The translations under genes were made by a program, and so were the position numbers. From Candidatus Pacearchaeota archaeon (GTDB lineage: Archaea > Nanobdellota > Nanobdellia > Pacearchaeales > GW2011-AR1): DNA of 64,000 nucleotides. Position 1 is the first letter of the stretch. Every line of letters begins with the position of its first letter. Of this stretch, positions 40,532 through 58,302 are shown piece by piece. The notes under the pieces are model-generated. The model had not been told where the DNA came from. It did not search any database and was given only the letters and a program-made list of their open reading frames with translations. The stretch is from assembly GCA_038740375.1 (NCBI GenBank), contig JAVYLW010000001.1, positions 11,530 through 75,529 of the forward strand, given 5' to 3'.

Positions 40532-40855
40532 ATGGAAGAAGATAAAGAAAAAATTTCTAAATCTTCTTTAGAAAAACTGATGTTTAAAGCAGTTTGTTCT
40601 GAATGTGGAGCTGAATGCGAAGTTCCTTTTCAGCCAACTAAAGGAAAATCTGTGAAATGTAATGACTGCTTTAAAAAAGTAAAATCTAAAAGATTTAACA
40701 ACAGGTTTTTGAAAAGAAGAAATTTTAGAAATAGTAGACATAGAATTATGCATAAAGCAGTTTGTTCTGAATGTGGAGCTGAATGCGAAGTTCCATTTAT
40801 ACCAAAAGAAGGCAAACCTGTTAAATGCAACAATTGTTTTAAGAAAGCTAAATAA
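40532..40855 (+). CDS. tandem-duplicated CxxC-x17-CxxC zinc-ribbon protein
   Basis: 107 aa. Two copies of KAVCSECGAECEVPF.P..GK.VKCN.CFKK. The first about 45 nt of each copy are identical at DNA level, the rest diverged. Confidence 0.5.
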   Translation: MEEDKEKISKSSLEKLMFKAVCSECGAECEVPFQPTKGKSVKCNDCFKKVKSKRFNNRFLKRRNFRNSRHRIMHKAVCSECGAECEVPFIPKEGKPVKCNNCFKKAK

Positions 40856-41016
40856 ATTTTAGTTTTTTAAAGGAATTATTCTATTTATTTTTAATTAATA
40901 TAATAAATTTAGTTATATCTTTATTTATTATCCTTTACCTTTAAGGTAATAATTATTTTTCAAAATTTTAATATTTTTTTATAAAGATTTATAAATAAGT
41001 TCGCACATTTAAGGTA

Positions 41017-41844
41017 ATGGAAAAAGAAGATTTTCTAAAAAGAATATCCACTGAAATGAAGATAGCAAAACTATCTCCATATACTATTAGAAATTATTTA
41101 ATTAATAATAAAAACCTTTTAGAATACTCTAAAAAATCTCCAGAAGAAATAACTGAAATTGACATCAAGAATTATATAGCTGATAAAATGTCAGATAAAT
41201 CAAGTGTCTCAAATATTTTATTCTTATCTTCGATTAAATTCGCATATATGACAATATTCGGAAAAGATCCTACAGATAAAATAAAAAGACCAAAAAATGA
41301 AAAAAAGATTCCAAATGTTTTAACAAAAGAGGAAATTATTAAACTGTTTAATTCAGCAAAATCAAAAAAAAGTAAATTAATGCTTAAAATACTTTATTCC
41401 TCAGGACTAAGAGTTTCCGAGCTAGTTAATCTTAAACCTCAAGACTTAAATTTAGAAGAGAATATGGGATGGGTTAGGTGTGGAAAAGGAAAAAAAGATA
41501 GAATATTTTTTATTTCCAAAAAATTATCTAATCAATTAAAAAAATATTTGAAAAAAAGAGAATCATGGAAATATTTATTTTCAAAAAATAAGCCTCTTAC
41601 AACAAGAAATGTTCAAAAAATTGTAAGCAAGTTAGCAAAAAGGTCAGGAATTAATAAAAAGGTTACGCCACATACATTAAGACATAGTTTTGCAACACAT
41701 CTTTTAGATTCAGGAGTAGATATCAGAAAAATACAAACTTTGCTCGGTCATTCAAGCATATCAACTACTCAAATTTATACTCATATTAGTTCAGAGCAAT
41801 TAAAATCAATAAAAAATCCTCTTGATAATCTTTACAACAAATAA
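41017..41844 (+). CDS. xerA: XerA/XerC-like tyrosine recombinase
   Basis: 275 aa. C-terminal catalytic region HTLRHSFATHLLDSGVDIRKIQTLLGHSSISTTQIYTHI (R-H-R-Y tetrad, Tyr in IYTH). Size typical of archaeal XerA. Confidence 0.8.
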   Translation: MEKEDFLKRISTEMKIAKLSPYTIRNYLINNKNLLEYSKKSPEEITEIDIKNYIADKMSDKSSVSNILFLSSIKFAYMTIFGKDPTDKIKRPKNEKKIPNVLTKEEIIKLFNSAKSKKSKLMLKILYSSGLRVSELVNLKPQDLNLEENMGWVRCGKGKKDRIFFISKKLSNQLKKYLKKRESWKYLFSKNKPLTTRNVQKIVSKLAKRSGINKKVTPHTLRHSFATHLLDSGVDIRKIQTLLGHSSISTTQIYTHISSEQLKSIKNPLDNLYNK

Positions 41845-42411: not shown

Positions 42412-43002
42412 ATGAAAGAAACATTAAAATGTCTGGTAAAAGCATTTATTGGCGAAAGTCAAGCAAGAAATAGATATACTTATTATGCAAAAATTGCTCA
42501 AAAAGAAGGTTATGAACAAATTGCTGAGATATTTTTAATTACAGCAGATCAAGAAAAAATTCATGCGAAAAGATTATTTGAACATATTCAAGAATTAAAA
42601 AAAGAACTTTCAGAGTCTGAGCAAAAAGAAATTATTGTAGAAAATGTATCTTGCTCTATAATTATAGGAGATACTTTAGAAAATTTAAAAGCAGCTGCAG
42701 CAGGAGAACATTACGAATATTCTGAGATGTATCCAAGTTTTGCAAAAATAGCAGAAGAAGAAGGTTATAAGAAAATAGCTTTAAGATTTAAAGCTATTGC
42801 AGTCGCAGAGATACATCATGAAGAAAGATATAAAAAACTTATGGAGCAACTAAAAAACGGAACCTTTTTCAAAAAATCAGAAAATGTTTGGTGGGTCTGT
42901 AGGGAATGCGGTTATGCATTCTTTGGAAAATCTCCTCCAGAGATATGTCCTTCATGCGATCATCCAAAGGCATTTTATCAATTGAAATGTGAAGAATACT
43001 AA
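42412..43002 (+). CDS. rbr: rubrerythrin
   Basis: 196 aa. Ferritin-like diiron ExxH motifs (QEKIHAKRLFEH; VAEIHHEERYKK) plus C-terminal rubredoxin-like CRECG...CPSCDHP. Start overlaps the dfx stop. Confidence 0.85.
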   Translation: MKETLKCLVKAFIGESQARNRYTYYAKIAQKEGYEQIAEIFLITADQEKIHAKRLFEHIQELKKELSESEQKEIIVENVSCSIIIGDTLENLKAAAAGEHYEYSEMYPSFAKIAEEEGYKKIALRFKAIAVAEIHHEERYKKLMEQLKNGTFFKKSENVWWVCRECGYAFFGKSPPEICPSCDHPKAFYQLKCEEY

Positions 43003-43106
43003 TTTATAAATATAGTGGAACTTAATGTCCACTATTTTGGAAAAGCTTAAATACCTATATTTCTTTATGTATGCAATTAAATATTTAACTATTTAAGATA
43101 AAAAAT

Positions 43107-44309
43107 ATGACTAACAATGTTAAGATACCCATAAGAAAACTTAACTTAAATAAACAAATTGAGAACATCAAAAAATGGAAGATTAGCGAAGAAGATAAAA
43201 AGTATGTTCCTCAATTTTTTAAAGAGTTTCAAATAGGCAAAATTACTGGCAATCAACCAACTGAGGGAACATTAATATCTTACTTAGCGGATTTAAGAGT
43301 GGCTTTGGAGTATATGAACAAACCAACTTCTAAGTTAACATTAAAGGATACTGAAAATTTATGTGAAGCGTTTTTAAGGAATACTTTGAATTGGGGATTT
43401 AGGAAAAGAACTAAGAAAGGTGAGACCATTATAACAAATCAACCTTATTCGGAAACTGGAAAGGTTAAAATAAAAAATACAACAATACTTTATTTGAATT
43501 GGAGATTAGGAGAAGAAAAAGCTAGTAAGTTAGTGAAGATACTTAAAGTTAGACCAAAATTAAAACAAAAGAGTCCTGACTATTTAACTGAAGACCAAGT
43601 TGAAAAATTGTATAAATCTTGTAAAAACGCTAAAGAGAGATATTTAATAAGTCTACTTTATGATGGTGGAATGAGAGCAGAAGAGTTCTTTAATATAAGA
43701 TTTTCAGATATACAACTTCCAAATGGAAATGACAATTTTGTTAAACTAACTTTGAAAGAGGAGTATAGTAAAACAAAAGGCAGAACAATTGGTTTGTATT
43801 GGAAATATTCTTATGAAGCTGTTAGAGATTATCTTAATGAAAGAATTAGTGAAGGAATAAAAGAAGATGAACCTATTTTTGTTGGTGATTACACAAACAC
43901 TCTAAAATTCCTAAAAAGATTGGGAAAAAGAATTTTAGGTAGGAAAATTTATTTTCATTTGTTTAGACATTCGAGTGCAACTTATTATGCTAATAAACTT
44001 AATCGCCAAGAATTGTGTATAAGATATGGGTGGAACTTCTGCTCTCCTTGTCCAGATATTTACATTTCGAGAGATTTAAGCAAAAGTGAAATTGATACGA
44101 AGTTTGAGAAAACTCAAATTAATGAACTAAGAGTTGAGTTGGAAAAACAAAAACAATTTAATACAATCAAACAAGATGAACTTGAAAGAAAGAACAAAGA
44201 ACTCCAAATTGAAATACAAAGTTTAGCTATGAACACTAACAACATAGTTGGAGAATTGAAAAATTATATTTTTAGGTTGTTGAATTTGAACACGAGTGAG
44301 AATTATTAA
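43107..44309 (+). CDS. tyrosine integrase (phage/plasmid type) with C-terminal coiled-coil extension
   Basis: 400 aa. Catalytic region R...HLFRHSSATYYANK...Y, intact. C-terminal 60 aa coiled coil. Confidence 0.7.
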   Translation: MTNNVKIPIRKLNLNKQIENIKKWKISEEDKKYVPQFFKEFQIGKITGNQPTEGTLISYLADLRVALEYMNKPTSKLTLKDTENLCEAFLRNTLNWGFRKRTKKGETIITNQPYSETGKVKIKNTTILYLNWRLGEEKASKLVKILKVRPKLKQKSPDYLTEDQVEKLYKSCKNAKERYLISLLYDGGMRAEEFFNIRFSDIQLPNGNDNFVKLTLKEEYSKTKGRTIGLYWKYSYEAVRDYLNERISEGIKEDEPIFVGDYTNTLKFLKRLGKRILGRKIYFHLFRHSSATYYANKLNRQELCIRYGWNFCSPCPDIYISRDLSKSEIDTKFEKTQINELRVELEKQKQFNTIKQDELERKNKELQIEIQSLAMNTNNIVGELKNYIFRLLNLNTSENY

Positions 44310-44316
44310 TATTATT

Positions 44317-44580
44317 TTATGAGCTTGTTTTATTTAATTCTTTTAAAATTTCTTTTCCTCTTTTTGTAAGTTCATAAAACCTATAAAATTTATCATTAGG
44401 ATTCTTACAAACAATTAAACCTCTATCAACCAATTCCTTTAGTGATTTTGAAACATTGTGAATGCTTACATTACAACGCTCTCCTATTTCTTTTGGTATC
44501 ATTGGTTTGTCCAAACAAAGAAGTATGGCTTTTCTTCTTTCGCCTCTTAAAATAAAACTTAATAATGAATAGTTTGTCAT
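44317..44580 (-). CDS. winged-helix transcriptional regulator
   Basis: 87 aa. Same small wHTH family pattern as ORF 32941..33213 (RRKAILLCLDKPMIPKEI...SLKELVDRGLI...KFYRFYELTKRGKEIL). Confidence 0.5.
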   Translation of the reverse strand: MTNYSLLSFILRGERRKAILLCLDKPMIPKEIGERCNVSIHNVSKSLKELVDRGLIVCKNPNDKFYRFYELTKRGKEILKELNKTSS

Positions 44581-44660
44581 AAAGACAAAGGTTATTCGTT
44601 ATTTAATGGATTAGTCATCTTTAAGGTATCGATAAGGTATAATCAATTTGGCGGATACTG

Positions 44661-45299
44661 TCAAATTAGAGTGATGCAGTTATCTCTGACAAATTTTATC
44701 AAACCCAATAACTTATTTCTTCCCAAATTCAAATTTATCTCTGCCATTTCTGCGGGTGTCTTTCCATTCAATTCTTGATTTGGATTAACAAAATTGTGGA
44801 TTGTTCTTCTCAAATCCATAAAGCATTTTGCATCATCAAAATTTTTGAAGCCACTTCTAATATTTTTTATTCTATCTTTTATTTTTCCATTATATCTCTC
44901 AATTGCATTATTGTTATGTTTTAATCCATATTTTTTACATGCAATTGGAACTCCAAAGTTTAGCTTGCAAATTCTATAAAATAATTTCATAAATGCACTT
45001 TTATAATTTTCAAATCCATCACACGTAAATTCAATTAATTCTCTATCTTTAACTTTCTTGTATTTTTCTTGATTATATCTTTCAATTATTTGTTCAAAAC
45101 AAGAATCTTTAATTTGTTTTAGGAATTTTATACATTCTTCTTTCGTTCTTTTACCGACGAAAGAATGTGCTAAAACAAATTTAGTTTTGTTGTCGATGGC
45201 ATTTAAATCATAATAATCTTTTCCAGAAACTTTTATATATTTTTCATCATAATGAATTCCACCAATTATTTTTGGTTTAACAATTTCATTTATCGGATT
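44661..45299 (-). pseudogene. IS1 InsB-like DDE transposase domain (no own start codon; separated from InsA by frameshift)
   Basis: Open frame translating ...GIHYDEKYIKVSGKDYYDLNAID...FTCDGF...NNAIERYNGKIKDRIKNIRSGFKNF (D, D, E residues; IERxN..l..RI motif as in IS1 InsB). The first ATG is only at 44990. Confidence 0.55.
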
Positions 45300-45588
45300 T
45301 TAAAAAAACAGAATATTTATTGCACCAATATCCTATTGCTTGTCTTGTAACTTTAACTCCTTCATGCTGCCATAAATAATCTTGAACTTGAAATAAAGAT
45401 AAACCCTCATTGTGCAAATGAATGGCTTTAACAATATCTTCTTTTTTATATCTCATCTTTTCAAATCCATCACTTTTCATAAAAGTAAATTCACATTGAT
45501 TACAAAAATAAAGTTGTTTTGTCCCAGAATTATTATATCTCTTACCTCTTTTTATAATATTTTTATTTTTACATTTAGGGCATTTCAT
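45286..45588 (-). CDS. IS1 InsA-like protein (zinc finger plus HTH)
   Basis: CPKCKNKNIIKRGKRYNNSGTKQLYFCNQCEFTF parallels IS1 InsA CPSC..V.RNGK....QRY.C..C..T., followed by an HTH. Confidence 0.6.
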   Translation of the reverse strand: MKCPKCKNKNIIKRGKRYNNSGTKQLYFCNQCEFTFMKSDGFEKMRYKKEDIVKAIHLHNEGLSLFQVQDYLWQHEGVKVTRQAIGYWCNKYSVFLKSDK

Positions 45589-45703
45589 ATGTTTTCACCT
45601 CCTTAAAATTAGGAGGAAAACATACTATTTAAGCTTAACTCACGATAACTTTACAATATCAATTTGGCGAAAGGTTTTTAAAGTATATTTTATAATAGTT
45701 ATT

Positions 45704-46816
45704 ATGAAAAAGTTAATACTACCTATTGTTTTCATTTTGGGGATAACTATGATTCTTAGTTTTGTTTCGGCAGATAATTTTAATGTTCATTACAAAGTTT
45801 ACGCAGATGAAGGTTGGAATTTGCTTCATGGTTTTGGAGCCTATACTTTAGTCTCTAATTTTGTTACTGGTGGAGATGTAACTAACAGTGATGTTGTTGC
45901 TATTTTTGCCTATTTACCAATTGACCATAAATATGCGAGAATTTACCCTAATCCGGAAGTAAAAGTTGATGATCAACAATTACTAAATAGTGCTTTTTGG
46001 GTTTATTTGAAAAAAGGTGGTTGGATTGAATATAATGTTGAACAAGAATGGGCTTCTGTAAATGACAAAAAGTTATATGCTGGTTGGAATTTTGTAGGGA
46101 TAACTTCTGATATGTTCCGATTAAATGTTAAGGAGTGGAAAGGAAATTGTAATATTGAAAAAATTGGAGGTTACCAACATAATAGGTGGGATGTAATTGA
46201 TTCAACTTCGAATATTGATGAGTTAATGTTGGCAGATACAGAACAAGATTTAGGTAGGGGAATGATAGTAAAAGTAACAAGTAATTGTATGCTCTCTTTA
46301 AGTGGCAGTAATGAAATAAGTCCTCCTGCAATCCCAGACACAATTAGTAATCCTCCAACAACAACTAATCCACCTATGGATAGTAATCTTGACTTTCCTA
46401 AAACTATTGGAGAATTTACCTTAAAATCAGAAAATTCAAATGATAAAACAGAGTGTGGGCAGTTAGACGGAAATAATGTTTGTGTTCAGATGAGTAGAAT
46501 TGAGTATGTAACTTCTGACAATAGAGCAGTTCATGTTTTACCAACAAAAATCACATCAGGGAAAGATAGCTATATTAATTACATCAAAACTCATGCTTCT
46601 GAGATAAATGTCGGTGGTGTAACAGGTGTTTATAGGGGAGCAGAACCTTGGGAATTGTATTGGTTTACTAATAAGGACTATGATATGATTGGAACACAAG
46701 ATTATACTTATACAGTTCAATCAGACGGCAGTCAAAATGCTCAAACATTAAATGGAACAACTACAAGCTCAGTAGCTCAGTGGTTGTTAAATAAATATCC
46801 ACCAATCACAGTATAA
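45704..46816 (+). CDS. secreted protein (signal peptide), hypothetical, within mobile island
   Basis: 370 aa. Leader MKKLILPIVFILGITMILSFVSA. Noticeably higher GC than the surrounding chromosome. Confidence 0.5.
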   Translation: MKKLILPIVFILGITMILSFVSADNFNVHYKVYADEGWNLLHGFGAYTLVSNFVTGGDVTNSDVVAIFAYLPIDHKYARIYPNPEVKVDDQQLLNSAFWVYLKKGGWIEYNVEQEWASVNDKKLYAGWNFVGITSDMFRLNVKEWKGNCNIEKIGGYQHNRWDVIDSTSNIDELMLADTEQDLGRGMIVKVTSNCMLSLSGSNEISPPAIPDTISNPPTTTNPPMDSNLDFPKTIGEFTLKSENSNDKTECGQLDGNNVCVQMSRIEYVTSDNRAVHVLPTKITSGKDSYINYIKTHASEINVGGVTGVYRGAEPWELYWFTNKDYDMIGTQDYTYTVQSDGSQNAQTLNGTTTSSVAQWLLNKYPPITV

Positions 46817-46846
46817 TGATAAAACAAAAAAGAGGAATGAGTGCAT

Positions 46847-46990
46847 GGATTTGGATTTTAATAATCTTAATCATCTTGGCAGTTGGTGGAATCGTAGCTT
46901 ATCTACTGCTCTCAGGTAATGGAAGTTCTATCTTGGGTGGTGGAAGTTCAATACCTCAGCCACCTGCGTTACCTAATTAAGAAATAAGAA
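46847..46990 (+). CDS. small membrane peptide (47 aa), unannotated in ORF track
   Basis: MSAWIWILIILIILAVGGIVAYLLLSGNGSSILGGGSSIPQPPALPN. One TM plus G/S-rich tail. Confidence 0.3.
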
Positions 46991-47359
46991 TTATTTTATC
47001 TTTTGTAAGTTTCTATCAAAAATTTCCAAAATCTTCTCACCATCATTTGTAATCTTTAAAGGTCTCTTACCATGTTCTTGTGGTTCATTTATAGTGATAA
47101 GTTTGATTTTAACTAGGTGTCTAACGTGTTGTTTTAAACTCATGTGAGATAATCTTAATATTTTCTTTAAATCACCAACACCTATGTCTTTGTTTGGATT
47201 ATTTTTTATTGTTCTGAGGACTACAAGGTTAAGTTCATTTAGGATGTTTCCGCTTCTGTCACCTCTTTTTCTTTTAACCATATAGTATATTGGAATGGAT
47301 GATTTATAAACATATCGTTTAAAATTGTATACTATTTGAAATTTAGGTGAGAGCAACAT
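46991..47359 (-). CDS. winged-helix regulator (probable true start at internal Met, about 47281)
   Basis: MVKRKRGDRSGNILNELNLVVLRTIKNNPNKDIGVGDLKKILRLSHMSLKQHVRHLVKIKLI. HTH plus wing pattern. Confidence 0.5.
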   Translation of the reverse strand: MLLSPKFQIVYNFKRYVYKSSIPIYYMVKRKRGDRSGNILNELNLVVLRTIKNNPNKDIGVGDLKKILRLSHMSLKQHVRHLVKIKLITINEPQEHGKRPLKITNDGEKILEIFDRNLQKIK

Positions 47360-47414
47360 TTATAAACGTATAATGATATATAAAATTGTATTAAATTATT
47401 AATATAGGTATAAT

Positions 47415-47561
47415 ATGAACAAACAAACAATCATAATAAAAGTGAATGAGAAAGAAAAGAAAAAGATAGTTGAGGCTACTCAAAAAAGTATGCGAACCAT
47501 TACATCAATTGCTAAACAGGGAATAATGAAACAAGTAGAGGAGATTTTAAATGGAAAATAA
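47415..47561 (+). CDS. ribbon-helix-helix (CopG/Arc-like) protein, 48 aa, unannotated in ORF track
   Basis: MNKQTIIIKVNEKEKKKIVEATQKSMRTITSIAKQGIMKQVEEILNGK. N-terminal beta-strand followed by two helices as in RHH plasmid regulators. Confidence 0.45.
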   Translation: MNKQTIIIKVNEKEKKKIVEATQKSMRTITSIAKQGIMKQVEEILNGK

Positions 47562-47709
47562 AATCAAAACAGTTTTTGAGGAACAACAGGAAATATTTAG
47601 GGAAATTGAAACTCGTTTAAATTCTTTGATTGATAAAAATAAAGAAATTTTAAAAAAGGTTGATATAAATTTTGGAGTTAAAAAAGATGGCACAACTAAT
47701 TCTAACTAA
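47551..47709 (+). CDS. small hypothetical protein (52 aa), overlaps RHH gene stop
   Basis: MENKIKTVFEEQQEIFREIETRLNSLIDKNKEILKKVDINFGVKKDGTTNSN. No recognisable domain. Confidence 0.3.
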   Translation: MENKIKTVFEEQQEIFREIETRLNSLIDKNKEILKKVDINFGVKKDGTTNSN

Positions 47710-47917
47710 ATTAAATCAAAACAAGGAGGTTAACCCCATGGTGCCCCAAGTCAAGTCTAGGAAAGCTCCACCAAGATACGATGATAAAGTTAAGAAAGAG
47801 ATAGTGGACGCTGCTAAAAGTGGAATGAGTTTAAAACAAATATTGGAAAAATTCAAACCACGAAAACGAGCAGTTCTTAGATACTTGAAGAAGTATGATG
47901 TAAAGCTTCAACATTAA
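47687..47917 (+). CDS. small HTH DNA-binding protein
   Basis: ORF-track entry 47672..47917. The likely start is ATG at 47687 (MAQLIL...). Segment EIVDAAKSGMSLKQILEKFKPRKRAVLRYLKKY resembles an HTH. Confidence 0.4.
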   Translation: MAQLILTKLNQNKEVNPMVPQVKSRKAPPRYDDKVKKEIVDAAKSGMSLKQILEKFKPRKRAVLRYLKKYDVKLQH

Positions 47918-47968
47918 ATTTTTTTCGTACTTAAAATATAGGCACAACTATGGAAGTTCAAAAACGAT

Positions 47969-49681
47969 ATGGCTATTGAAATACCAATACAATTTAGAAA
48001 AAGGGAATTTAGGTTTGTTTTACTGGATAAGGAAGCAAAAAGACCCATTGAGAAAGATTGGCAAACAATAAGTAATTATGAGTTTGACGATTCTAAATTA
48101 TTGAGACATTTGGAGAATGGTGGAAATTATGGAATTCTAATGGGAAGAGGAAGATTAATTTGCTTTGATTTGGATAACCCAAACTTAGTATCTTATTATG
48201 ATGAGAAATTTAAGGATACTCTAATTGTTGAGACTGGCTCAAAGAAAAGACACTATTTCTTTTTTAGCGATTTTAAAACAAATAAAAGAATAAATAATGT
48301 TGGAGAAATTAGGTGTGAACGTATGCAACTTGTTGGAGCTAATTCTATCCATCCAAATAAACAACCTTACAAAATTATTAATAATAATGAAATAAAAGAA
48401 ATTTCTGATGTTGAGTTAAATGAACTCTTTAAAACAATTTTTAGTGATGGAACTACCTTTGTTGTTAAAGGTATGGATGATAGTATGAGCGGGATAGAGT
48501 ATCATGAGATTGGAAAATTATTGAAAGAAGGAAAAACTAAAGAAGAAATTTTTAAACATATGGAGAATCCAATTTTTGAAAAGTGGAATACACACGGACT
48601 TAAGTATCCACAATATAGAGAGTTAACTTTTGAGAGAGCTAAAGAATTTTTGATAAACACAAATCAACTACCATTAACACAACAAACACAAAATAATATT
48701 AATAATAATTATCCATTTTGGACAATTGTAGATTATGAAAATTACAAACCATCTAAGAACTATATAATTGAGGAACTTGTATACCCTGAAGAGATTGAAA
48801 TGGTTTATAGCCAATCTGGACATTTTAAAAGTTTAGATGGATTGTATAGGGCTGTTTGTATTGTGAGTGGGAAAAAATATTTAGGAAAGTTTAGAGTTAA
48901 GAAATGTGCTGTTGGAATTATATCCGCTGAAAATCACAAAAAGATTGATAAGATAAGGCTTAAAGCTATTATGAGAGGATTGAAGATTAGGAAGAAGAAT
49001 TTACCATTATATATTCTACCTCGTGAAAATTGTAGAGACATTTTGGATATGGATTTTAAACTTTTGATAGAAGACTTTATTTGTAAGAAAGGAATTAAAG
49101 TTTTATTTATTGATACTATCAATCCAGTTACACCACAAGTCGACGACAACAAAGCAAAAGATGTTACAAGAATTTATAATGAATTTTTTAAACCATTAGT
49201 TGATAAGTATAAGATTACAATTTGTTTTTTCCATCATACTGACAAGAAAGCTACATCATTTTTAGGTTCTATGAAATTTAGAGCAAATAGTGATGTTGTT
49301 TATTTTATTGATAGGAAAGGACTTGAACTAAAATATACAATTTACAATGAAAAAAATAGAGAAGGAGAAATAGGAAGTTTAGAGGTTGGCGTTCAGTTTA
49401 CCAACAATAAAAAAGAGACAAAAGAAATAAAATTCTTTTTGTTAAAACAAAGTGAACAAAAAGGTATAGGAACTGTTAAAAGAAAAACTAAAAGTCAATT
49501 ATTTGAGGAGAAAATAAATTCTTTTGTTTCAAACAAACCAATTAGCCGAGGAGATTTAATAAAATTGTGTGATAGCGTTGGAAGTGTATCTGTATTTGAT
49601 AAGGCTTTAAGAGGATTGGTGAAACAAGGACAATTAATCAAAAGCAAAGAAGGTTATACTAAAAATGAAAATCCAATTTAA
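47969..49681 (+). CDS. plasmid/virus-type replication protein: N-terminal Prim-Pol (bifunctional primase-polymerase) domain plus C-terminal RecA-like domain
   Basis: 570 aa. Prim-Pol signature FVLLDKEAKRPIEKDW...NYGILMGRGRLICFDLD...HYFFFSD. C-terminal RecA-like region with hhhhD Walker B (KVLFIDTI) and a degenerate P-loop (SQSGHFKS). Confidence 0.65.
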   Translation: MAIEIPIQFRKREFRFVLLDKEAKRPIEKDWQTISNYEFDDSKLLRHLENGGNYGILMGRGRLICFDLDNPNLVSYYDEKFKDTLIVETGSKKRHYFFFSDFKTNKRINNVGEIRCERMQLVGANSIHPNKQPYKIINNNEIKEISDVELNELFKTIFSDGTTFVVKGMDDSMSGIEYHEIGKLLKEGKTKEEIFKHMENPIFEKWNTHGLKYPQYRELTFERAKEFLINTNQLPLTQQTQNNINNNYPFWTIVDYENYKPSKNYIIEELVYPEEIEMVYSQSGHFKSLDGLYRAVCIVSGKKYLGKFRVKKCAVGIISAENHKKIDKIRLKAIMRGLKIRKKNLPLYILPRENCRDILDMDFKLLIEDFICKKGIKVLFIDTINPVTPQVDDNKAKDVTRIYNEFFKPLVDKYKITICFFHHTDKKATSFLGSMKFRANSDVVYFIDRKGLELKYTIYNEKNREGEIGSLEVGVQFTNNKKETKEIKFFLLKQSEQKGIGTVKRKTKSQLFEEKINSFVSNKPISRGDLIKLCDSVGSVSVFDKALRGLVKQGQLIKSKEGYTKNENPI

Positions 49682-49776
49682 TCATACTCTGGGTAAAATG
49701 TCAAGTGGTTTTGATAGGGAGAGCCATCTTCCTTTAGCTCCAATTCTATTTGACATTCCCGGAGGTTTAAATTAAA

Positions 49777-50052
49777 ATGGAAAAAGAACAAGTCGAAATA
49801 ATAGGTATTGTTGATAAGGGGATATGGAGAAAGAGGAATGCAGAATCCCATTATCAAGAATGTAACTTCCAATTAGAATCTGGAGAAGATATTTGGTGTA
49901 TCTGGTTTATTCCAAATATAAGAAGAGGTTGGAAAGTAAGAGTTGTTGGTAGTTGGAGTGAACATAAAAAATATATCAACGCTACATATGTAGAAAGAAT
50001 TTTTGAAAAACAAAAAGATAAACAAATACAATTAAAGGAGTTTATGAAATGA
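49777..50052 (+). CDS. hypothetical protein (overlaps resolvase start)
   Basis: 91 aa. ATGA overlap with the following serine recombinase gene. Confidence 0.35.
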   Translation: MEKEQVEIIGIVDKGIWRKRNAESHYQECNFQLESGEDIWCIWFIPNIRRGWKVRVVGSWSEHKKYINATYVERIFEKQKDKQIQLKEFMK

Positions 50053-50564
50053 AAATAGCTTTGTATTGTAGGGCTTCAACTAGTGAAGATAAACAAAACT
50101 TAGACAATCAAATTAATCCATTAATTGAGAAATGTAAGAAAGAAGGTTGGGAATACGAGGTATTTAAAGAGTATGCATCTGGAGTTAGGGAAAGTAGACC
50201 TCAATTAGATGTTATGATGGGTAAGATTAGGAATAAAGAGTTTAATGGAATTATGGTTTGGAGAATTGATAGATTAGGTAGAAGTTTAAAACATCTTTTA
50301 CAATTAATTGAGGAATTTAGGAATAGGAAGGTTAAGTTTATTTCATTAACTGAGGGTTTTGATACATCAACTCCACAAGGAGAGTTGTTTATGTCTATTG
50401 CGGGAGCGTTTGCTCAATTTGAAAGAAAACTTATACAGGAGAGAGTGTATGCAGGACTTGAAAGAGCTAAACTTCAAGGTAAACAAATTGGGAGACCTAA
50501 AGGAAGTAAAGATAAGAAGGTTAGAAGGAAGAGTGGTTATCTTTTGAGATATGCTAACAAATAA
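50049..50564 (+). CDS. serine recombinase (resolvase/invertase family)
   Basis: 171 aa. Catalytic Ser in ALYCRASTSEDKQ, conserved R..D.G.S, RIDRLGR and FAQFER(K)LI motifs. Short C-terminus with weak HTH. Confidence 0.75.
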   Translation: MKIALYCRASTSEDKQNLDNQINPLIEKCKKEGWEYEVFKEYASGVRESRPQLDVMMGKIRNKEFNGIMVWRIDRLGRSLKHLLQLIEEFRNRKVKFISLTEGFDTSTPQGELFMSIAGAFAQFERKLIQERVYAGLERAKLQGKQIGRPKGSKDKKVRRKSGYLLRYANK

Positions 50565-50627
50565 CCTACCCTATCAATTCTTTATTTAATTTGTATTGTA
50601 AACTTTAAAACTAAAAAACCAAATGGT

Positions 50628-50652
50628 TGTTTGGTATTTCTTAGACGTAATT
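50628..50652 (+). terminator. hairpin ACCAAA-tggttg-TTTGGT followed by T-rich tract after resolvase gene
   Basis: Seen about 60 nt downstream of the 50564 stop. Confidence 0.35.
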
Positions 50653-50721
50653 GAGTTTTGAGTTAAATTGCTTAAAAGTTTTATTTAATTCAAATAAAGA
50701 GAGCAAAAACGAGAATTTTTT

Positions 50722-50762
50722 ATGTGATGCACATAATTACAACTTTGTATGATGCACATAAA
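50722..50762. repeat. direct repeat (G/A)TGATGCACATAA x2 with internal dyad TATGTG-ATG-CACATA
   Basis: tatgtgatgcacataattacaactttgtatgatgcacataaaa. Confidence 0.7.
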
Positions 50763-51233
50763 AAATATTAGGTGATACGTATAAGAAAAGTGCTATTTTT
50801 ACTGCTAATATAAATGAAATGAAAAAATTAACTGGCTTAACTCAAAATAGACTCACACCTAACAATTATCGACGATATTTTTATGGATACAAATAAAAAG
50901 AAGGACTGTTTATTTTTATTATGAAGATTATTTTAACAATCAAATCGAACAAAGGAATACATACAACTCCAAAAGAAAATGATTTTATTGTTGAGAAGAT
51001 TTTGGAAGTTGGTTCTTATTTAGAGAAAAAGTTTGGTAATGTCAAAATTGGAAAGTGTAAGTGTTTATATGATGGTGTTACACTTATACTCAAAAGTTAA
51101 GGTATAGGTAGTATAAAAACACCTCAAATTTGTTCTTAAAAGGACTTATAGGGAAGAAAATGAACTCCCATAATGGTTTTTATTATGTTTTTGAAAATTA
51201 ATCATTTTTGATTGTATATTAACTAAACCACTA

Positions 51234-51283
51234 CTTATCGTTTATCATACACTATAAGTGTGTATGATAAGATAAACGATAAA
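51234..51283. repeat. long inverted repeat (about 19-bp arms, TATAA loop): CTTATCGTTTATCATACAC / GTGTGTATGATAAGATAAACGATAAAG
   Basis: Near-perfect palindrome in the 1.6 kb gene-poor stretch following the plasmid-like module. Confidence 0.7.
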
Positions 51284-52180
51284 GTGTAACGTGGTTGTCA
51301 ATTATTGAAATGTTAAATTTGTTGATATGATAATTGATAAGATGATTTTTAATTGTATATGTTCAATTTTTTTAATTTTTATTACTTTTTATGTATTTGT
51401 GATTATTGGGGAAATGGAGTTTGGTGTTAGGGGGTGATAAAATCCAATAAAACAATACTAAAAGTTCATTAAAAATTACATTAAAGTGTATATGGGAATA
51501 CGAATGGCTTGTATTCCTCAAAATGTTAAAAGTGTGGTGGCAAAAGATTATTAAAGTTTAATATAGTGGACACTTTGTGCTACTATATTATAAAATAAAT
51601 TTTCTAATTAATTAATAAGTACGATTATATTTTAAACAAAAGTTGAACTATATTTATTAATAATGTTCATTTTAAATTTTATTATACTATTAAATTATAT
51701 ACAAAAACTATTCTTTCAAATCTATAATATATTTGACTACTCCTTTTTTCCAATTAACTATTTTTCTCCAAGTTGCTTGAGGATAATTTTTTATTATATG
51801 CTCAATTATTCCCCATTTCTTCTCTAAAGCAAGATTTGCTCCTCCAATTAATACAAAAGATAATTTAATTATCATTTTAATCTATTATAAATAGTATTTT
51901 TTCTTTAAATAAAAAACTATTTATTGAAATATATATTTTAATTATATACATATTTATAAACAAAAAACTTGAAGAGTGATAACATTTAATTTTATAGTGG
52001 TAATAGGAAGATTAAATAAATTTAAATAATTACTAAATTGACTATTCTCTCAAAATTTTTTAAAAATATCTTTCTTTAAAAAAGAATAAAAATATTATTA
52101 AGATTCATAATTGAGTTATATCAAAATGTTTTTAATCTTTTTAAAGCTATTATTTAAAAATTAAAATTTAAATTTAAAAA

Positions 52181-53002
52181 ATGGCAATAATATACTCTCA
52201 TTCAAAACTGTCTAGTTTTGAACAATGTCCTTTAAAATACAAATTCAGATATATAGATAATATTGAGCCAGAAATAAAACAAACTATTGAAGGTTTTTTA
52301 GGAAATAGAGTTCACGATACTTTAGAATATCTTTATAACGAAATTAAAAAGGATAGTCGCGTTCCAGAATTAGACGAAATAATAAAATTTTATAATAATT
52401 TATGGTATCAAGAATATTCTGAAGATATTAAAATCGTTAATGAAAATATGAATGTAGAATATTATTACAATTTAGGAATTAAATTTTTAATAGATTATTA
52501 TTTTAGTAATAGACCCTTTAAAGATAACACTATAGCAACTGAAATGAAAATAACAGTTTCTCTTGATTCTGAAGAAAAATTTCAGATTCAAGGGTATATA
52601 GATAGATTAGTGCATCATAAGGATACAAACATTTTTGAGATACACGACTATAAGACAGGTAATTTTTTAAAATCTCAAGAAGAATTAGATAAAGACAGGC
52701 AATTAGCTTTATACTCTTTAGGAATAAGAGATATGTTTCCAGAAGCAAAAGATGTTCTTTTAATATGGCATTTTCTTGCTTTCAACAAAAAAATAATTTC
52801 AAAAAGAACAATTGAGGAATTAGAAAAATTAAAACAAGACACTATACTCTTAATTAACAAAATTGAGAATGCTAAAAATTTTCCAGCAAAACCGAGTTGT
52901 CTTTGCAAATGGTGTGAGTTTCAAAAAATTTGTCCTGAAGTAAAATTTGAGTTAATAAAAGAGAATGTTGATATTTGTAAAATAGAAGATAATGGAGTGT
53001 AA
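52181..53002 (+). CDS. Cas4-like PD-(D/E)xK nuclease with C-terminal Fe-S cysteine cluster (no CRISPR locus nearby)
   Basis: 273 aa. N-terminal YSHSKLSSFEQCPLKYKFRYI, motif II GYIDRL, motif III IHDYKTG, C-terminal CLCKWCEFQKICP (with N-terminal Cys = 4 Cys). Confidence 0.7.
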   Translation: MAIIYSHSKLSSFEQCPLKYKFRYIDNIEPEIKQTIEGFLGNRVHDTLEYLYNEIKKDSRVPELDEIIKFYNNLWYQEYSEDIKIVNENMNVEYYYNLGIKFLIDYYFSNRPFKDNTIATEMKITVSLDSEEKFQIQGYIDRLVHHKDTNIFEIHDYKTGNFLKSQEELDKDRQLALYSLGIRDMFPEAKDVLLIWHFLAFNKKIISKRTIEELEKLKQDTILLINKIENAKNFPAKPSCLCKWCEFQKICPEVKFELIKENVDICKIEDNGV

Positions 53003-58218: not shown

Positions 58219-58302
58219 TGCGGGGGAGAGGATTCGAACCCCTGCAGGCACTAAGCCAACACGTCCTTAGCGTGTCCTATTTGACCACTCTAGCACCCCC
58301 GC
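58219..58302 (-). tRNA. tRNA-Leu (class II, long variable arm), apparent anticodon AAG (anticodon loop CUAAGGA), no encoded CCA
   Basis: Minus-strand sequence GCGGGGGTGCTAGAGTGGTCAAATAGGACACGCTAAGGACGTGTTGGCTTAGTGCCTGCAGGGGTTCGAATCCTCTCCCCCGCA. 7-bp acceptor stem, 5-bp anticodon stem ACACG/CGTGT, T-loop TTCGAAT, discriminator A. Confidence 0.85.

Follow-up and report, generated by a model that had tools for sequence, protein, structure and literature searches.

The minimal replicon of plasmid pRN1 comprises orf904, the gene of a repressor and, downstream of orf904, a stem-loop that replication requires (PMC4234260). The cryptic integrated elements (CIE) of Thaumarchaeota, the majority of them <20 kb, are defined by an integrase and a replication protein, in some cases a primpol-helicase fusion; their direct repeats are shorter than in iMGEs of other archaea, and some of their insertions are intergenic (PMC6563490). 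In the PrimPol-PV1 supergroup of bacterial and archaeal mobile elements, an AEP is fused to a RepA/DnaB-family helicase, and the C-terminal winged helix is thought to recognise the origin (PMC5862659). Within a window of 64,000 nucleotides (the whole stretch of DNA analysed), we identify positions 43003-51594, with a probability of about 75%, as an integrative plasmid-like element ('cryptic integrated element') in a Candidatus Pacearchaeota (DPANN) chromosome. Among its products are an intact tyrosine integrase of Xer-like type, a replication protein of Prim-Pol/RepA-like type and a serine recombinase (Table 1); the element represents an undescribed family of an ordinary, known kind: the integrative cryptic plasmid. 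Its host is a tiny DPANN archaeon.

Table 1. Features of the element, in window coordinates.
Feature	Position	Strand	Remarks
attL core TTTATAAA	43003..43010		includes 7-bp TTATAAA, left copy of the flanking direct repeat
Left-end arm site ATAGTGGA-ACTTAATG-TCCACTAT	43012..43035		two inverted ATAGTGG heptamers
Tyrosine integrase, 400 aa	43107..44309	+	distantly Xer-like; C-terminal coiled-coil extension
Winged-helix regulator, 87 aa	44317..44580	-	in variable cargo slot; Pfam MarR_2 E 6e-7, HTH_20 E 1e-6
Degraded insertion sequence	44661..45588	-	DDE transposase C-terminal fragment 44661-44990; zinc-ribbon N-terminal fragment 45286-45588
Cargo protein, 370 aa	45704-46816	+	N-terminal signal-like hydrophobic segment
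Cargo single-pass membrane protein, 54 aa	46816-46980	+	directly after 370-aa gene
Winged-helix-like protein, 122 aa	46991..47359	-	divergent from replication operon; conserved core begins here
Three small ORFs	47415..47917	+	upstream of replicase: 48 aa 47415-47561, 52 aa 47551-47709, 81 aa 47672-47917
Replication protein, 570 aa	47969..49681	+	Prim-Pol (AEP), RepA/DnaB-like AAA_25 ATPase, C-terminal probable winged helix
SL1 stem-loop	49687..49764	+	directly 3' of replicase stop codon; conserved; candidate origin
91-aa protein	49777..50052	+	possibly OB fold; stop overlaps resolvase start (ATGA)
Small serine recombinase, 171 aa	50049..50564	+	without HTH domain; conserved basic C-terminal tail GRPKGSKDKKVRRKSGYLLRY
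Hairpin ACCAAA-TGGTTG-TTTGGT	50618..50635	+	after resolvase gene; conserved in L001, L012, L018
Copy-specific segment, 205 bp	50680..50884		holds two GATGCACATAA repeats; in place of relatives' 80-aa and 261-aa genes
Conserved ORF, 59 aa	50921..51100	+	82-93% identical to relatives
IR2 long inverted repeat/hairpin	51226..51296		clustered GATAA/TTATC motifs; conserved
Right-end arm site ATAGTGGA-CACTTTGTG-CTACTAT	51563..51586		degenerate inverted heptamers
attR core TTATAAA	51588..51594		right copy of the direct repeat

Comparison by blastn with the related contigs L001, L012, L018 and L059 placed the ends at 43003 and 51594, giving a length of ~8.6 kb. A sequence-only reading had flagged 45700-51300 as a captured element; that segment does lie inside a real element but is only part of it, the start being at the integrase 2.7 kb further left. 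The distinct base composition it described was borne out, since G+C is 28.8% in the element (43003 to about 51594) versus 23.4% in the remaining window, and 8.6-kb windows outside the element had a mean of 0.231 (sd 0.015, maximum 0.259, n=153). Closely related copies, with 80-88% nucleotide identity and the same gene order throughout, occupy many unrelated chromosomal sites in other contigs: the host neighbours are rubrerythrin and a nuclease in this genome, LemA and an aminotransferase in L001, and a 103-aa ORF on one side and deoxyhypusine synthase on the other in L059. A related Pacearchaeota contig keeps the XerA-desulfoferrodoxin-rubrerythrin ... nuclease-helicase neighbourhood and has no integrase, Prim-Pol or resolvase there. 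Together with the Prim-Pol profile matches described below, composition and the placement of relatives between unrelated host genes uphold the main reading of a captured mobile element.

The termini were defined from eight distinct left and nine distinct right junctions, whose host flanks are mutually unrelated. Similarity is lost immediately left of the TTATAAA core at the former, and divergence begins immediately after TTATAAA at the latter; in this genome, the rubrerythrin stop codon (43000-43002) abuts the attL core. Because junctions with unrelated host flanks stop at TTATAAA, the att sites belong at the element ends rather than among the repeats that follow the resolvase gene (50.6-51.3 kb), where one had been suggested; as judged from these junctions, they are 43003-43035 and 51563-51594. 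Just inside the repeat at each end lies an inverted pair of ATAGTGG-type heptamers, the left pair adjoining the integrase gene. The left arm site holds the same position in L001, L012, L018, L023, L024, L030, L034 and L059, the right arm site is invariant at 9/9 distinct right junctions, and we propose that the inverted heptamers are integrase binding sites. At five of the eight left junctions the host gene start is exactly 21 nt from the core, a spacing that suggests TATA-box targeting; promoters, at their TATA boxes, appear to be the insertion targets of the family. We found no report in the literature of a TATA-box-like 7-bp core with insertion 21 nt upstream of the host start codon.

The integrase, whose gene has 84-88% nucleotide identity to relatives, matched Pfam Phage_integrase (E 1.7e-14) and the PDB structure of XerA (5hxy, E 1.6e-5), and scored 70.9 bits against NCBIfam XerA_Arch, under the cut-off of 220. 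With its gene beside the left att site, it is indeed part of the element, as had been supposed of an upstream integrase. The replication protein has a 100% identical counterpart in a Pacearchaeota MAG at NCBI. Its predicted Prim-Pol domain survived both profile searches (residues 11-145, PF09250, E 2e-10, 41.8 bits, cut-off 22.8) and comparison with pRN1 ORF904 structures (1rni, E 4e-5), and the RecA-like C-domain was recovered as AAA_25 (residues 250-427, PF13481, E 1.1e-12, 48.4 bits, cut-off 27). Residues D67, D69, H95, K287, E321, D382, H422, H423 and K426 are invariant across 16 homologues. The P-loop had been called degenerate: its Walker A motif is non-canonical, but the deviation (GxSGxxK[ST]) is shared family-wide and its Lys is invariant; the present copy (SQSGHFKS) is missing the first Gly too. 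Pfam detected no PriCT domain, and among annotated plasmid or phage proteins even the closest align with a single domain, at 24-27% identity.

The resolvase expected after the 570-aa gene proved to be a 171-aa ORF matching Pfam Resolvase (PF00239, E 8.5e-44), the sole domain in >530 homologues. Among solved structures it is closest to the Gin invertase (4m6f, E 6e-28), and genuine similarity extends no further than around the GRP motif; in the tail, G148, R149, P150, G152, D155, K157, R159, G163, Y164 and R167 are invariant. No res site was identified in the element, and a recognisable DNA-binding domain is likewise absent from the protein. The preceding 91-aa protein matched Pfam OB_YrrC at E 4.4e-5 (23.8 bits, under the cut-off of 27), and its AlphaFold2 model (pLDDT 44) was unusable. 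Following the resolvase, relatives carry an 80-aa and a 261-aa gene, both of which the present copy has lost.

Ahead of the replicase, the 122-aa gene is 82-90% conserved with relatives, and its product matched MarR/MarR_2 only weakly (E 0.005-0.01) and a transcriptional regulator in PHROG at E 4e-4. The order of the three small ORFs is identical in L001-L008, L012, L018 and L059. The assignment of the 48-aa ORF as a CopG-like RHH protein was not confirmed: it had no significant match in Pfam or PHROG, a profile built from its homologues reached an RHH antitoxin at no better than E about 1, and its single-sequence AlphaFold2 model is one long helix. An HTH protein had also been named here; the 81-aa ORF does have weak HTH matches, but every one is sub-threshold.

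No other 60 nt of the element are as conserved as SL1: it is 98% identical in three elements whose flanking coding DNA is at 40-80%, its alignment has almost no sequence variation among copies, and it is kept in L059 despite loss of downstream genes. Its DNA fold is at -12.2 kcal/mol (z -2.3), and from its conservation and by analogy with pRN1 we infer SL1 to be a candidate replication origin. The inverted repeat noted earlier at 51234-51283 is real, longer than described and conserved in relatives; this hairpin region, IR2, has a z of -3.8, is kept in L059, and in 8 distinct sequences has an invariant inner 9 bp and an outer helix with two CG<->UA compensatory pairs, making it a candidate second origin or protein-binding site. 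The hairpin seen directly after the resolvase was found with its ACCAAA/TTTGGT arms. The direct repeats reported alongside it exist as exactly two copies of GATGCACATAA (50726-50736 and 50751-50761), but as candidates for a res site or origin they are not conserved: blastn homology to relatives ends at 50679 and picks up again at 50885, so the repeats sit in a segment unique to the present copy.

Between integrase and core, L001, L018 and L012 have nothing that corresponds to 44321-46987, and the contents of this cargo slot, as of the post-resolvase slot, differ in every relative. The insertion sequence reported upstream is present as transposase and zinc-ribbon fragments but is degraded: the DDE fragment matched rve_3 at E 9e-6, just under the cut-off, and a PHROG transposase at E 1.5e-4, the zinc-ribbon fragment gave weak matches, and the ORF list shows no intact transposase ORF. 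The 370-aa and 54-aa proteins have no family in Pfam, PHROG or NCBIfam, and their region (45704-46980) has the highest G+C within the element. By comparison with relatives, the gained cargo of the present copy is a wHTH gene, a decayed IS, and a putatively secreted protein with a small membrane protein.

The junctions bear on two further readings of the ends. Short direct repeats flank copies at many sites and IS-derived fragments lie inside the element, yet a transposon whose 7-bp repeats are target-site duplications is scarcely credible: the TTATAAA sequence is identical at every insertion site, as for a recombination core and unlike an arbitrary-target duplication, which contradicts this origin of the repeats, the transposase-like ORFs are fragments restricted to the present copy's cargo, and every copy has kept an intact tyrosine integrase at its end. 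The end sites can also be read as 11-6-11 imperfect palindromes, and these as host dif-like sites, with the element an IMEX-type passenger at a XerA/dif site; a host XerA (41017-41844, 256.6 bits, cut-off 220) lies 1.2 kb left of the element, and another Pacearchaeota genome has a single, solo copy of the palindrome in perfect form, which has neither an integrase nor a Prim-Pol ORF within 3-7 kb. At the 8 left and 9 right junctions, however, similarity between copies spans both palindromes and stops at TTATAAA outside them, so the palindromes belong to the element. Contradicted by this comparison, and set against many unrelated insertion sites as opposed to one dif per chromosome and an integrase encoded beside the site, the dif reading is highly improbable.

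A fixed remnant of a former integrative plasmid, unable to excise or replicate, is a doubtful reading that nevertheless carries some weight. The degraded IS, the two lost post-resolvase genes, the extra Walker A substitution, the failure to find a circular form and the decay seen in L059 (Prim-Pol split, resolvase deleted) favour it. Against it, none of the ORFs for integrase, replicase, OB-like protein and resolvase is truncated and their catalytic residues are preserved; the end site and core repeat at either terminus are undamaged and the same as in relatives, and SL1 and IR2 are intact. Nor does a provirus of a small unclassified archaeal virus seem likely, in which integrase, replicase and resolvase would form a lysogeny/replication module and the 370-aa and 54-aa proteins here, or the 80-aa and 261-aa proteins of relatives, would be virion components. 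In its favour, several ORFs could be placed in no family, an 86.5-kb contig listed as viral by IMG/VR carries a resolvase of the same subfamily (70% identity), and the circular relative L009 has large unknown ORFs of 809, 262 and 244 aa. In broad outline, the cargo pair of a putatively secreted protein and a small membrane protein also resembles the spike and membrane proteins of membrane-enveloped archaeal viruses. Against this, the element has no capsid, portal, terminase or packaging ATPase match in Pfam or PHROGs, Prim-Pol relatives are absent from IMG/VR and INPHARED, and the putative structural genes vary between copies, while the conserved core holds DNA-handling genes only.

The close relatives recovered are all integrated or fragmentary. 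Searches of IMG/VR, GTDB genomes and JGI metagenomes yielded neither a circular (attP) junction nor a clean empty site of the subfamily, so we infer excision and autonomous replication; exact-protein look-ups of the flanking host genes gave no match. L009, which encodes a Prim-Pol/AAA_25 protein at 41% identity and an integrase, is a circular contig of 10,565 nt whose ends overlap by 30 nt, and it was seen in several samples. For the element itself 'extrachromosomal' is a presumption, as only this relative has a circular contig. As an integrative plasmid, the element would use its integrase for recombination between attP and a TTTATAAA site in the host, in many cases a leaderless gene's TATA box, and this would duplicate the core; the reconstructed attP would read ...ATAGTGGAcactttgtgCTACTAta-TTATAAA-tATAGTGGAacttaatgTCCACTAT..., the inner heptamers acting as inverted core arms around a 7-bp overlap. 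The excised circle would be copied by the Prim-Pol/helicase protein from IR2 or from SL1, which like the pRN1 stem-loop follows directly on the replicase gene, the small DNA-binding proteins encoded upstream may control expression, and the HTH-less serine recombinase would resolve multimers.

Compared with known small serine recombinases, the element's resolvase is homologous in its catalytic domain and E-helix (E 6e-28 to Gin 4m6f; E 1e-15 to 1e-17 to the resolvases of Tn3 and gamma-delta) and has the Ser10 nucleophile as well as conserved Arg residues. Unlike Gin/Hin and gamma-delta/Tn3, it lacks the C-terminal helix-turn-helix DNA-binding domain and has instead a conserved ~20-residue basic tail after GRP, the rule in >530 homologues, and a res-, gix- or hix-like site was not found in the element. 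The replicase follows the domain logic of PrimPol-PV1 (primase-polymerase, RecA-type RepA-family helicase, C-terminal winged helix), but differs in the lack of a Pfam PriCT match and in that its closest annotated proteins are one-domain matches at 24-27% identity. With the pRN1 family (Sulfolobales) the element shares a small DNA-binding protein gene ahead of a large multifunctional Prim-Pol replicase, a Prim-Pol domain homologous to that of ORF904 (1rni, E 4e-5) and a conserved stem-loop directly downstream of the replicase gene. Its motor, however, is a RecA-fold RepA/DnaB-like AAA_25, whereas that of ORF904 is a superfamily 3 helicase (PMC2777425); the element, which is found in integrated form, additionally carries both a tyrosine integrase and a serine recombinase, its host is a mesophilic, AT-rich DPANN archaeon, and an equivalent of the RHH repressor was not confirmed by profile or model. 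Like the thaumarchaeal CIE, it is small and integrated, with an integrase, a replication protein and short direct repeats, and virus and conjugation hallmark genes are absent (PMC6563490). It differs from them in its AAA_25 helicase partner, as opposed to the S3H fusions reported in CIE (PMC6563490), in its added serine recombinase, and in a 7-bp TATA-box-like core that in 5/8 insertions precedes a host start codon by exactly 21 nt.

We defined the limits of the element by blastn of four contigs that carry relatives of it (L001, L012, L018 and L059) against the window, and this comparison revealed three homologous blocks (see table), beyond which the flanks are unrelated between copies: in the window, a rubrerythrin gene to the left and a PD-(D/E)XK nuclease gene to the right; in L001, LemA and aminotransferase/NifU genes; and in L059, a 103-aa ORF with DHHA1 on one side and deoxyhypusine synthase on the other. 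The blocks and their unrelated flanks indicate that the interval 45700-51300, which the sequence-only reading had taken for the whole replicon, does lie inside a real element but is only its middle part; the true span is 43003-51594, starting at the integrase. The distinct base composition claimed for the region holds: G+C of 43003-51593 is 0.288 as compared to 0.234 in the rest of the window (~23% for the window overall), and 153 windows of 8.6 kb elsewhere have a mean of 0.231 (sd 0.015) and a maximum no higher than 0.259.

Coordinates of the ends, homologous blocks and structured non-coding features of the element (window positions)
Feature	Position	Description	Basis or value
Flanking direct repeat TTATAAA	43003-43010 and 51588-51594	constant 7 bp	junction comparison
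Left end site	43012-43035	ATAGTGGAACTTAATGTCCACTAT	
Right end site	51563-51586	ATAGTGGACACTTTGTGCTACTAT	
Homologous block 1	42992-44320	end site and integrase	blastn, relatives vs window
Homologous block 2	46988-50679	replication and resolvase core	blastn, relatives vs window
Homologous block 3	50885-51596	right part	blastn, relatives vs window
SL1	49687-49764	stem-loop	DNA fold -12.2 kcal/mol, z -2.3
IR2	51226-51296	conserved inverted repeat, clustered GATAA/TTATC motifs	region z -3.8

Close homologues of the element's replicase (59–84% identity) sit on small metagenomic contigs with a common gene order: integrase, variable slot, divergent winged-helix gene, three small ORFs, Prim-Pol/AAA_25 replicase, 90–97-aa ORF, 171-aa resolvase and further ORFs. 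Three copies (L059, L060 and L061; JGI 3300035660, ERZ27247924 and SRR11721899) represent a natural deletion variant that has lost the OB-like and resolvase genes together with the first part of the 59-aa ORF but keeps SL1 and IR2, divides the Prim-Pol and ATPase domains between ORFs of 224 and 388 aa, and carries a Pol-beta-type nucleotidyltransferase as cargo. In three others (L001, L002 and L004), ~100 nt where the conserved 59-aa ORF region begins are duplicated in tandem (L001 8225-8336 and 8323-9001), giving an ORF of 82 aa in place of 59 aa.

A related Pacearchaeota contig keeps the host gene order around the element (zinc-finger, XerA, desulfoferrodoxin, rubrerythrin ... nuclease, helicase), with ThyX, PhoH and other genes between rubrerythrin and nuclease; integrase, Prim-Pol and resolvase genes are all absent from that syntenic region. 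The Cas4/RecB-like nuclease to the right of the element (52181-53002) is a conserved host gene outside the element, with >1000 homologues, those labelled by organism being mostly from Pacearchaeota or Nanoarchaeia. On the other side, the 107-aa zinc-finger protein at 40532-40855 consists of two 142-nt tandem repeats, 74% identical, and its syntenic counterpart in the related contig is annotated zf_Tbcl_2.

Each end of the element carries a 24-bp site of inverted ATAGTGG heptamers. We scanned IMG/VR, GTDB species genomes and JGI metagenomes with a degenerate pattern covering both end-site forms; IMG/VR gave zero matches, and the GTDB and JGI scans, added to earlier loci, yielded 8 distinct left and 9 distinct right junctions. 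Similarity is lost immediately left of (T)TTATAAA-y-ATAGTGG in all of the former and immediately right of CTACTA-ww-TTATAAA in all of the latter. These break points indicate that the element is bounded by a constant TTATAAA and that the heptamer pairs are element DNA. For the same reason, we rejected a reading of the end palindromes as host dif sites (11-6-11) used by an IMEX, despite the xerA gene nearby. That one constant repeat is found at so many sites favours site-specific recombination over target duplication by a transposase; since both ends bear identical short repeats and these ends recur in different chromosomal contexts, this is a site-specific integrative element. An attachment site had been suspected in the repeat-rich stretch behind the resolvase gene, whereas the junction comparison puts the att sites at the element's ends.

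Joining the ends gives an attP of the form ...ATAGTGGA cactttgtg CTACTAta TTATAAA t ATAGTGGA acttaatg TCCACTAT... (synthetic junction ...TTAATATAGTGGACACTTTGTGCTACTATATTATAAATATAGTGGAACTTAATGTCCACTATTTTGG...; synthetic empty attB ...TGTGAAGAATACTAATTTATAAAATAAATTTTCTAATT...), in which the inner heptamers form inverted arms flanking a 7-bp overlap. Inverted arms about a short overlap are the classical core-site layout of tyrosine recombinases. The outer heptamers would then be additional arm sites, and the weak arm likeness of the host flanks beside the core (TAGTA-like on the left, yTAkT on the right) fits weak core-type sites in attB. The 400-aa integrase encoded beside the left site is a distant Xer-like tyrosine recombinase (PF00589, E 1.7e-14), whose alignment with XerA takes in the GGMRAEE and HLFRHS motifs (Arg...His-x-x-Arg); by our reading its catalytic Tyr lies in ...PDIYISR. 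It scores 70.9 bits against the archaeal XerA NCBIfam equivalog, below the cut-off of 220, which the host XerA (41017-41844) passes with 256.6 bits. A solo perfect end palindrome, ATATAGTGGAACTTTATGTCCACTATAT, occurs in a 565-kb Pacearchaeota MAG contig (JBAZNI010000001; L039 3188-3210, identical to L014 666-688) between a 109-aa ORF, apparently MazG-like, and an 81-aa gene, with TTTATAAA at one side only. No integrase or Prim-Pol ORF is evident in the ORF listing within 3 kb on one side or 7 kb on the other, and the palindrome may be the remnant end of a lost element.

Whether the element also exists as a circle bears on the earlier proposal of a captured extrachromosomal element, the main part of which is right, as the DNA is integrated and plasmid-like, while a circular form of this subfamily was not found. 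Its attP junction did not turn up when IMG/VR, the GTDB genomes and the JGI metagenomes were scanned with the end-site pattern; the hits were attL- and attR-type only, with neither an excised circle nor an empty attB among them. Exact-protein look-ups of rubrerythrin, nuclease and XerA returned no empty site in the same strain, and the locus of the nearest nuclease orthologue (71% identity) is syntenic without being a clean empty site. Among 53 loci checked, a terminal overlap was present in just one, L009 (Logan SRR25528453), a 10,565-nt contig with a 30-nt overlap that recurs in several samples and is probably circular. It encodes an integrase and a Prim-Pol/AAA_25 replicase with 41% identity to that of the element, and a tRNA-like 3' fragment upstream of its integrase suggests that this branch probably targets a tRNA gene. 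The overlap and the tRNA-like fragment together imply that the wider Prim-Pol/AAA_25 family has free circles and uses other targets. L009 further encodes a NikA-like RHH protein and three large ORFs without known function.

The host DNA beside the core offers a clue to target choice. Of the 8 distinct left junctions, 5 (L001, L023, L024, L030 and L034) adjoin a host ORF that points away from the element and whose ATG stands exactly 21 nt from the core. These ORFs encode LemA (184 aa), a 127-aa PIN_9 protein, a DNA-alkylation-repair protein of at least 109 aa and two unknown products of 124 and 100 aa. The PIN_9 and DNA_alkylation ORFs match their Pfam families from the first profile positions, which, with the LemA annotation, makes these ATGs plausible as true starts. 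The gene served by the core is always on the integrase side; exceptions are L059 and the window's copy, in the latter of which the rubrerythrin stop codon abuts the core. A TATA box is expected 20–22 nt from the ATG in leaderless archaeal mRNAs, and TTTATAAA-like octamers upstream of long ORFs in the window peak at this very distance, the XerA promoter at 40988 (40988-41019) being an example of a TATA-like octamer at such spacing. Among the 29 exact TTTATAAA sites in intergenic DNA beyond the element, however, just one lies exactly 21 nt from an ATG; at that rate the probability of at least 5 of 8 is 2.5e-6, and at a generous 4/29 it is 2e-3, both base rates coming from this genome only.

The likely reading of these data is that the family favours the TATA boxes of promoters and restores them through its core repeat, owing perhaps to extra sequence requirements or to the protein-bound state of promoters. 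A more far-reaching and tentative proposal, to which we give somewhat below even odds, is that the integrase targets functional promoters, recombining in fixed orientation at the TTTATAAA TATA box in front of leaderless host genes. On this model, the core repeat would put back a TATA box at 21 nt from the start codon of the host gene, the inserted element would replace all DNA upstream of it, BRE included, and the site would be recognized through promoter architecture or TBP/TFB-bent DNA and not through the 7-bp core alone. A full-text literature search found no report of integration targeting promoter TATA boxes in archaea; were the preference real, prokaryotes would offer a case in which integration is directed to the site of transcription initiation, raising the question of the element's effect on the neighbouring gene.

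The 570-aa protein (47969-49681) had been read as a Prim-Pol protein with a RecA-like C-terminal domain, and both assignments exceed curated Pfam thresholds: Prim-Pol (PF09250) at residues 11–145 with 41.8 bits (cut-off 22.8) and AAA_25 (PF13481), a RecA-fold, RepA/DnaB-like domain, at residues 250–427 with 48.4 bits (cut-off 27). A PHROG DNA primase family also matches (E 2e-12). Alignment of 16 homologues (23–83% identity) revealed invariant residues in both domains: D67 and D69 (CFDLD) and H95 of the sxH motif (KRHYF) in Prim-Pol, and K287, E321, D382, H422, H423 and K426 (HHxxK) in the ATPase. The P-loop described as degenerate is indeed non-canonical, since the family consensus GxSGxxK[ST] (SQSGHFKS in this copy) departs from GxxxxGK[ST], but it is a family-wide variant with an invariant K287 and not a decayed motif. 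By its domain content, the protein is a predicted Prim-Pol (AEP) primase-polymerase joined to a RepA/DnaB-like ATPase, with a probable C-terminal winged helix. The identical NCBI protein (100%) is labelled 'MAG: AAA family ATPase [Candidatus Pacearchaeota archaeon]', which places the host among the DPANN archaea. Relatives are sparse: no full-length relative was found among annotated plasmids and phages and no Prim-Pol relative in IMG/VR, and 1.84 billion cluster representatives held 161 at E <= 1e-30, just one of them with >50% identity.

The most conserved 60 nt of the element follow directly on the replicase stop codon (98% in three copies, as compared to 40–80% for the coding DNA beside SL1), and L059 retains SL1 though the OB-like and resolvase genes downstream are lost. 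In pRN1, the minimal replicon comprises the repressor/orf904 operon and a stem-loop downstream of orf904 that is needed for replication (PMC4234260); SL1 shares this position behind the replicase gene and, by analogy, is our first candidate origin. In L013, a distant relative, a stem-loop behind the replicase gene falls short of significance (z -1.2). The inverted repeat noted at 51234-51283 is present and belongs to the larger IR2. Across 8 distinct sequences its inner 9 bp are invariant and two compensatory pairs (CG<->UA) occur in its outer helix, lending modest support to a selected hairpin or cruciform; of the roles suggested for it, that of an origin stands as a candidate, IR2 being our second candidate for an origin or protein-binding site, while att sites lie at the ends. 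A match of IR2 to a miRNA-hairpin Rfam family (E 0.02) was dismissed as chance. The terminator-like hairpin reported behind the resolvase gene is there (50618-50635), as are the GATGCACATAA repeats (50726-50736 and 50751-50761). The repeats fall, however, in a 205-bp segment (50680-50884) unique to this copy, where relatives have genes for 80 and 261 aa, and so cannot represent a functional site, such as a res site or origin, that the family conserves. An Rfam scan of the whole window gave no family, and so no tRNA, at gathering thresholds; ARAGORN places a tRNA-Leu (anticodon aag) at 58219-58302 on the minus strand.

The resolvase call at 50049-50564 is secure (PF00239, E 8.5e-44), and the catalytic domain carries the invariant residues Y6, R8, S10 (the Ser nucleophile), D74, R75 and R78. 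The catalytic domain and E-helix align with the Gin, Tn3 and gamma-delta enzymes, but the likeness to Gin breaks off near the GRP motif, and the 171-aa protein stops ~20 residues later without an HTH; no Pfam or NCBIfam HTH family (HTH_7 type) matches its C-terminus. More than 530 homologue clusters at >=66% identity (170–231 aa) likewise have PF00239 only, and the tail GRPxGxKDKKxRRKSGYxLRW is almost invariant among homologues (P0073-P0192), which argues that the tail-only form is the functional state. As a secondary possibility, such enzymes may form a distinct subfamily that takes its specificity from a partner protein or DNA structure. In other integrase-bearing elements (L045 and L050-L052) this recombinase likewise comes after a replication-type gene and small ORFs, and it is also encoded on a large contig classed as viral in IMG/VR. 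In every case its start overlaps the stop of a small ORF upstream; a split recombinase, with that ORF supplying the DNA-binding domain, is unsupported, the ORFs of three element types (91, 64 and 86 aa) not being detectably homologous. Conserved non-coding DNA flanks the resolvase operon (SL1 upstream, 50565-50679 downstream), and no repeated subsite pattern could be assigned in it. From its position and by analogy to plasmid resolvases, the enzyme would serve multimer resolution of the circular form; judging from L059, the integrated state does not require it. The tail-only form is abundant, and the textbook domain model does not account for it.

The small ORFs are less clear. A CopG-like RHH assignment for the 48-aa ORF (47415-47561) was not confirmed: it has no Pfam or PHROG match, a profile of its homologues reaches an RHH antitoxin in the PDB weakly (E about 1), and its AlphaFold2 single-sequence model is one helix, such models being unreliable for dimeric RHH proteins. 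For the 81-aa ORF called HTH, HTH matches do exist, but all are below threshold (Pfam, NCBIfam). The AlphaFold2 model of the 91-aa ORF, a possible OB fold, has a pLDDT of 44.

Searches of window ORFs and of the relatives' extra ORFs against Pfam and PHROGs found no virus hallmark family (capsid, packaging), and gene content outside the core varies between copies, which favours a cryptic integrative plasmid over a virus. This copy combines intact enzymes and ends with a decayed IS and a deletion, making its present mobility uncertain. DPANN account for a large share of archaeal diversity, and almost nothing is known of their plasmids and integrated elements; the element and its relatives make up a family whose ends are exact to the base pair, with attP reconstructed and candidate origins at hand, from which genetic tools might be developed for organisms so far without any. 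The possible promoter targeting and the tail-only recombinase raise its interest above routine.

Among known systems, the replicase resembles an architecture described from mobile elements, in which an AEP primase-polymerase is fused to a RepA-family RecA-type helicase and a C-terminal winged helix (PMC5862659), the winged helix being probable here. The comparison with pRN1 ORF904 proposed earlier bears out the Prim-Pol domain, which matches the solved ORF904 domain at E 4e-5 over residues 9–77 only. The likeness stops there: PMC2777425 assigns ORF904 a superfamily 3 helicase, whereas the element's protein has AAA_25 and no SF3 or D5 family match (Pfam, PHROG), and so, on that account of ORF904, it is not an ORF904-type replicase. 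As a whole, the element is most probably a cryptic integrative plasmid, comparable to the cryptic integrated elements (CIE) recorded in other archaea (PMC6563490); in kind, it represents a new family of a known class.
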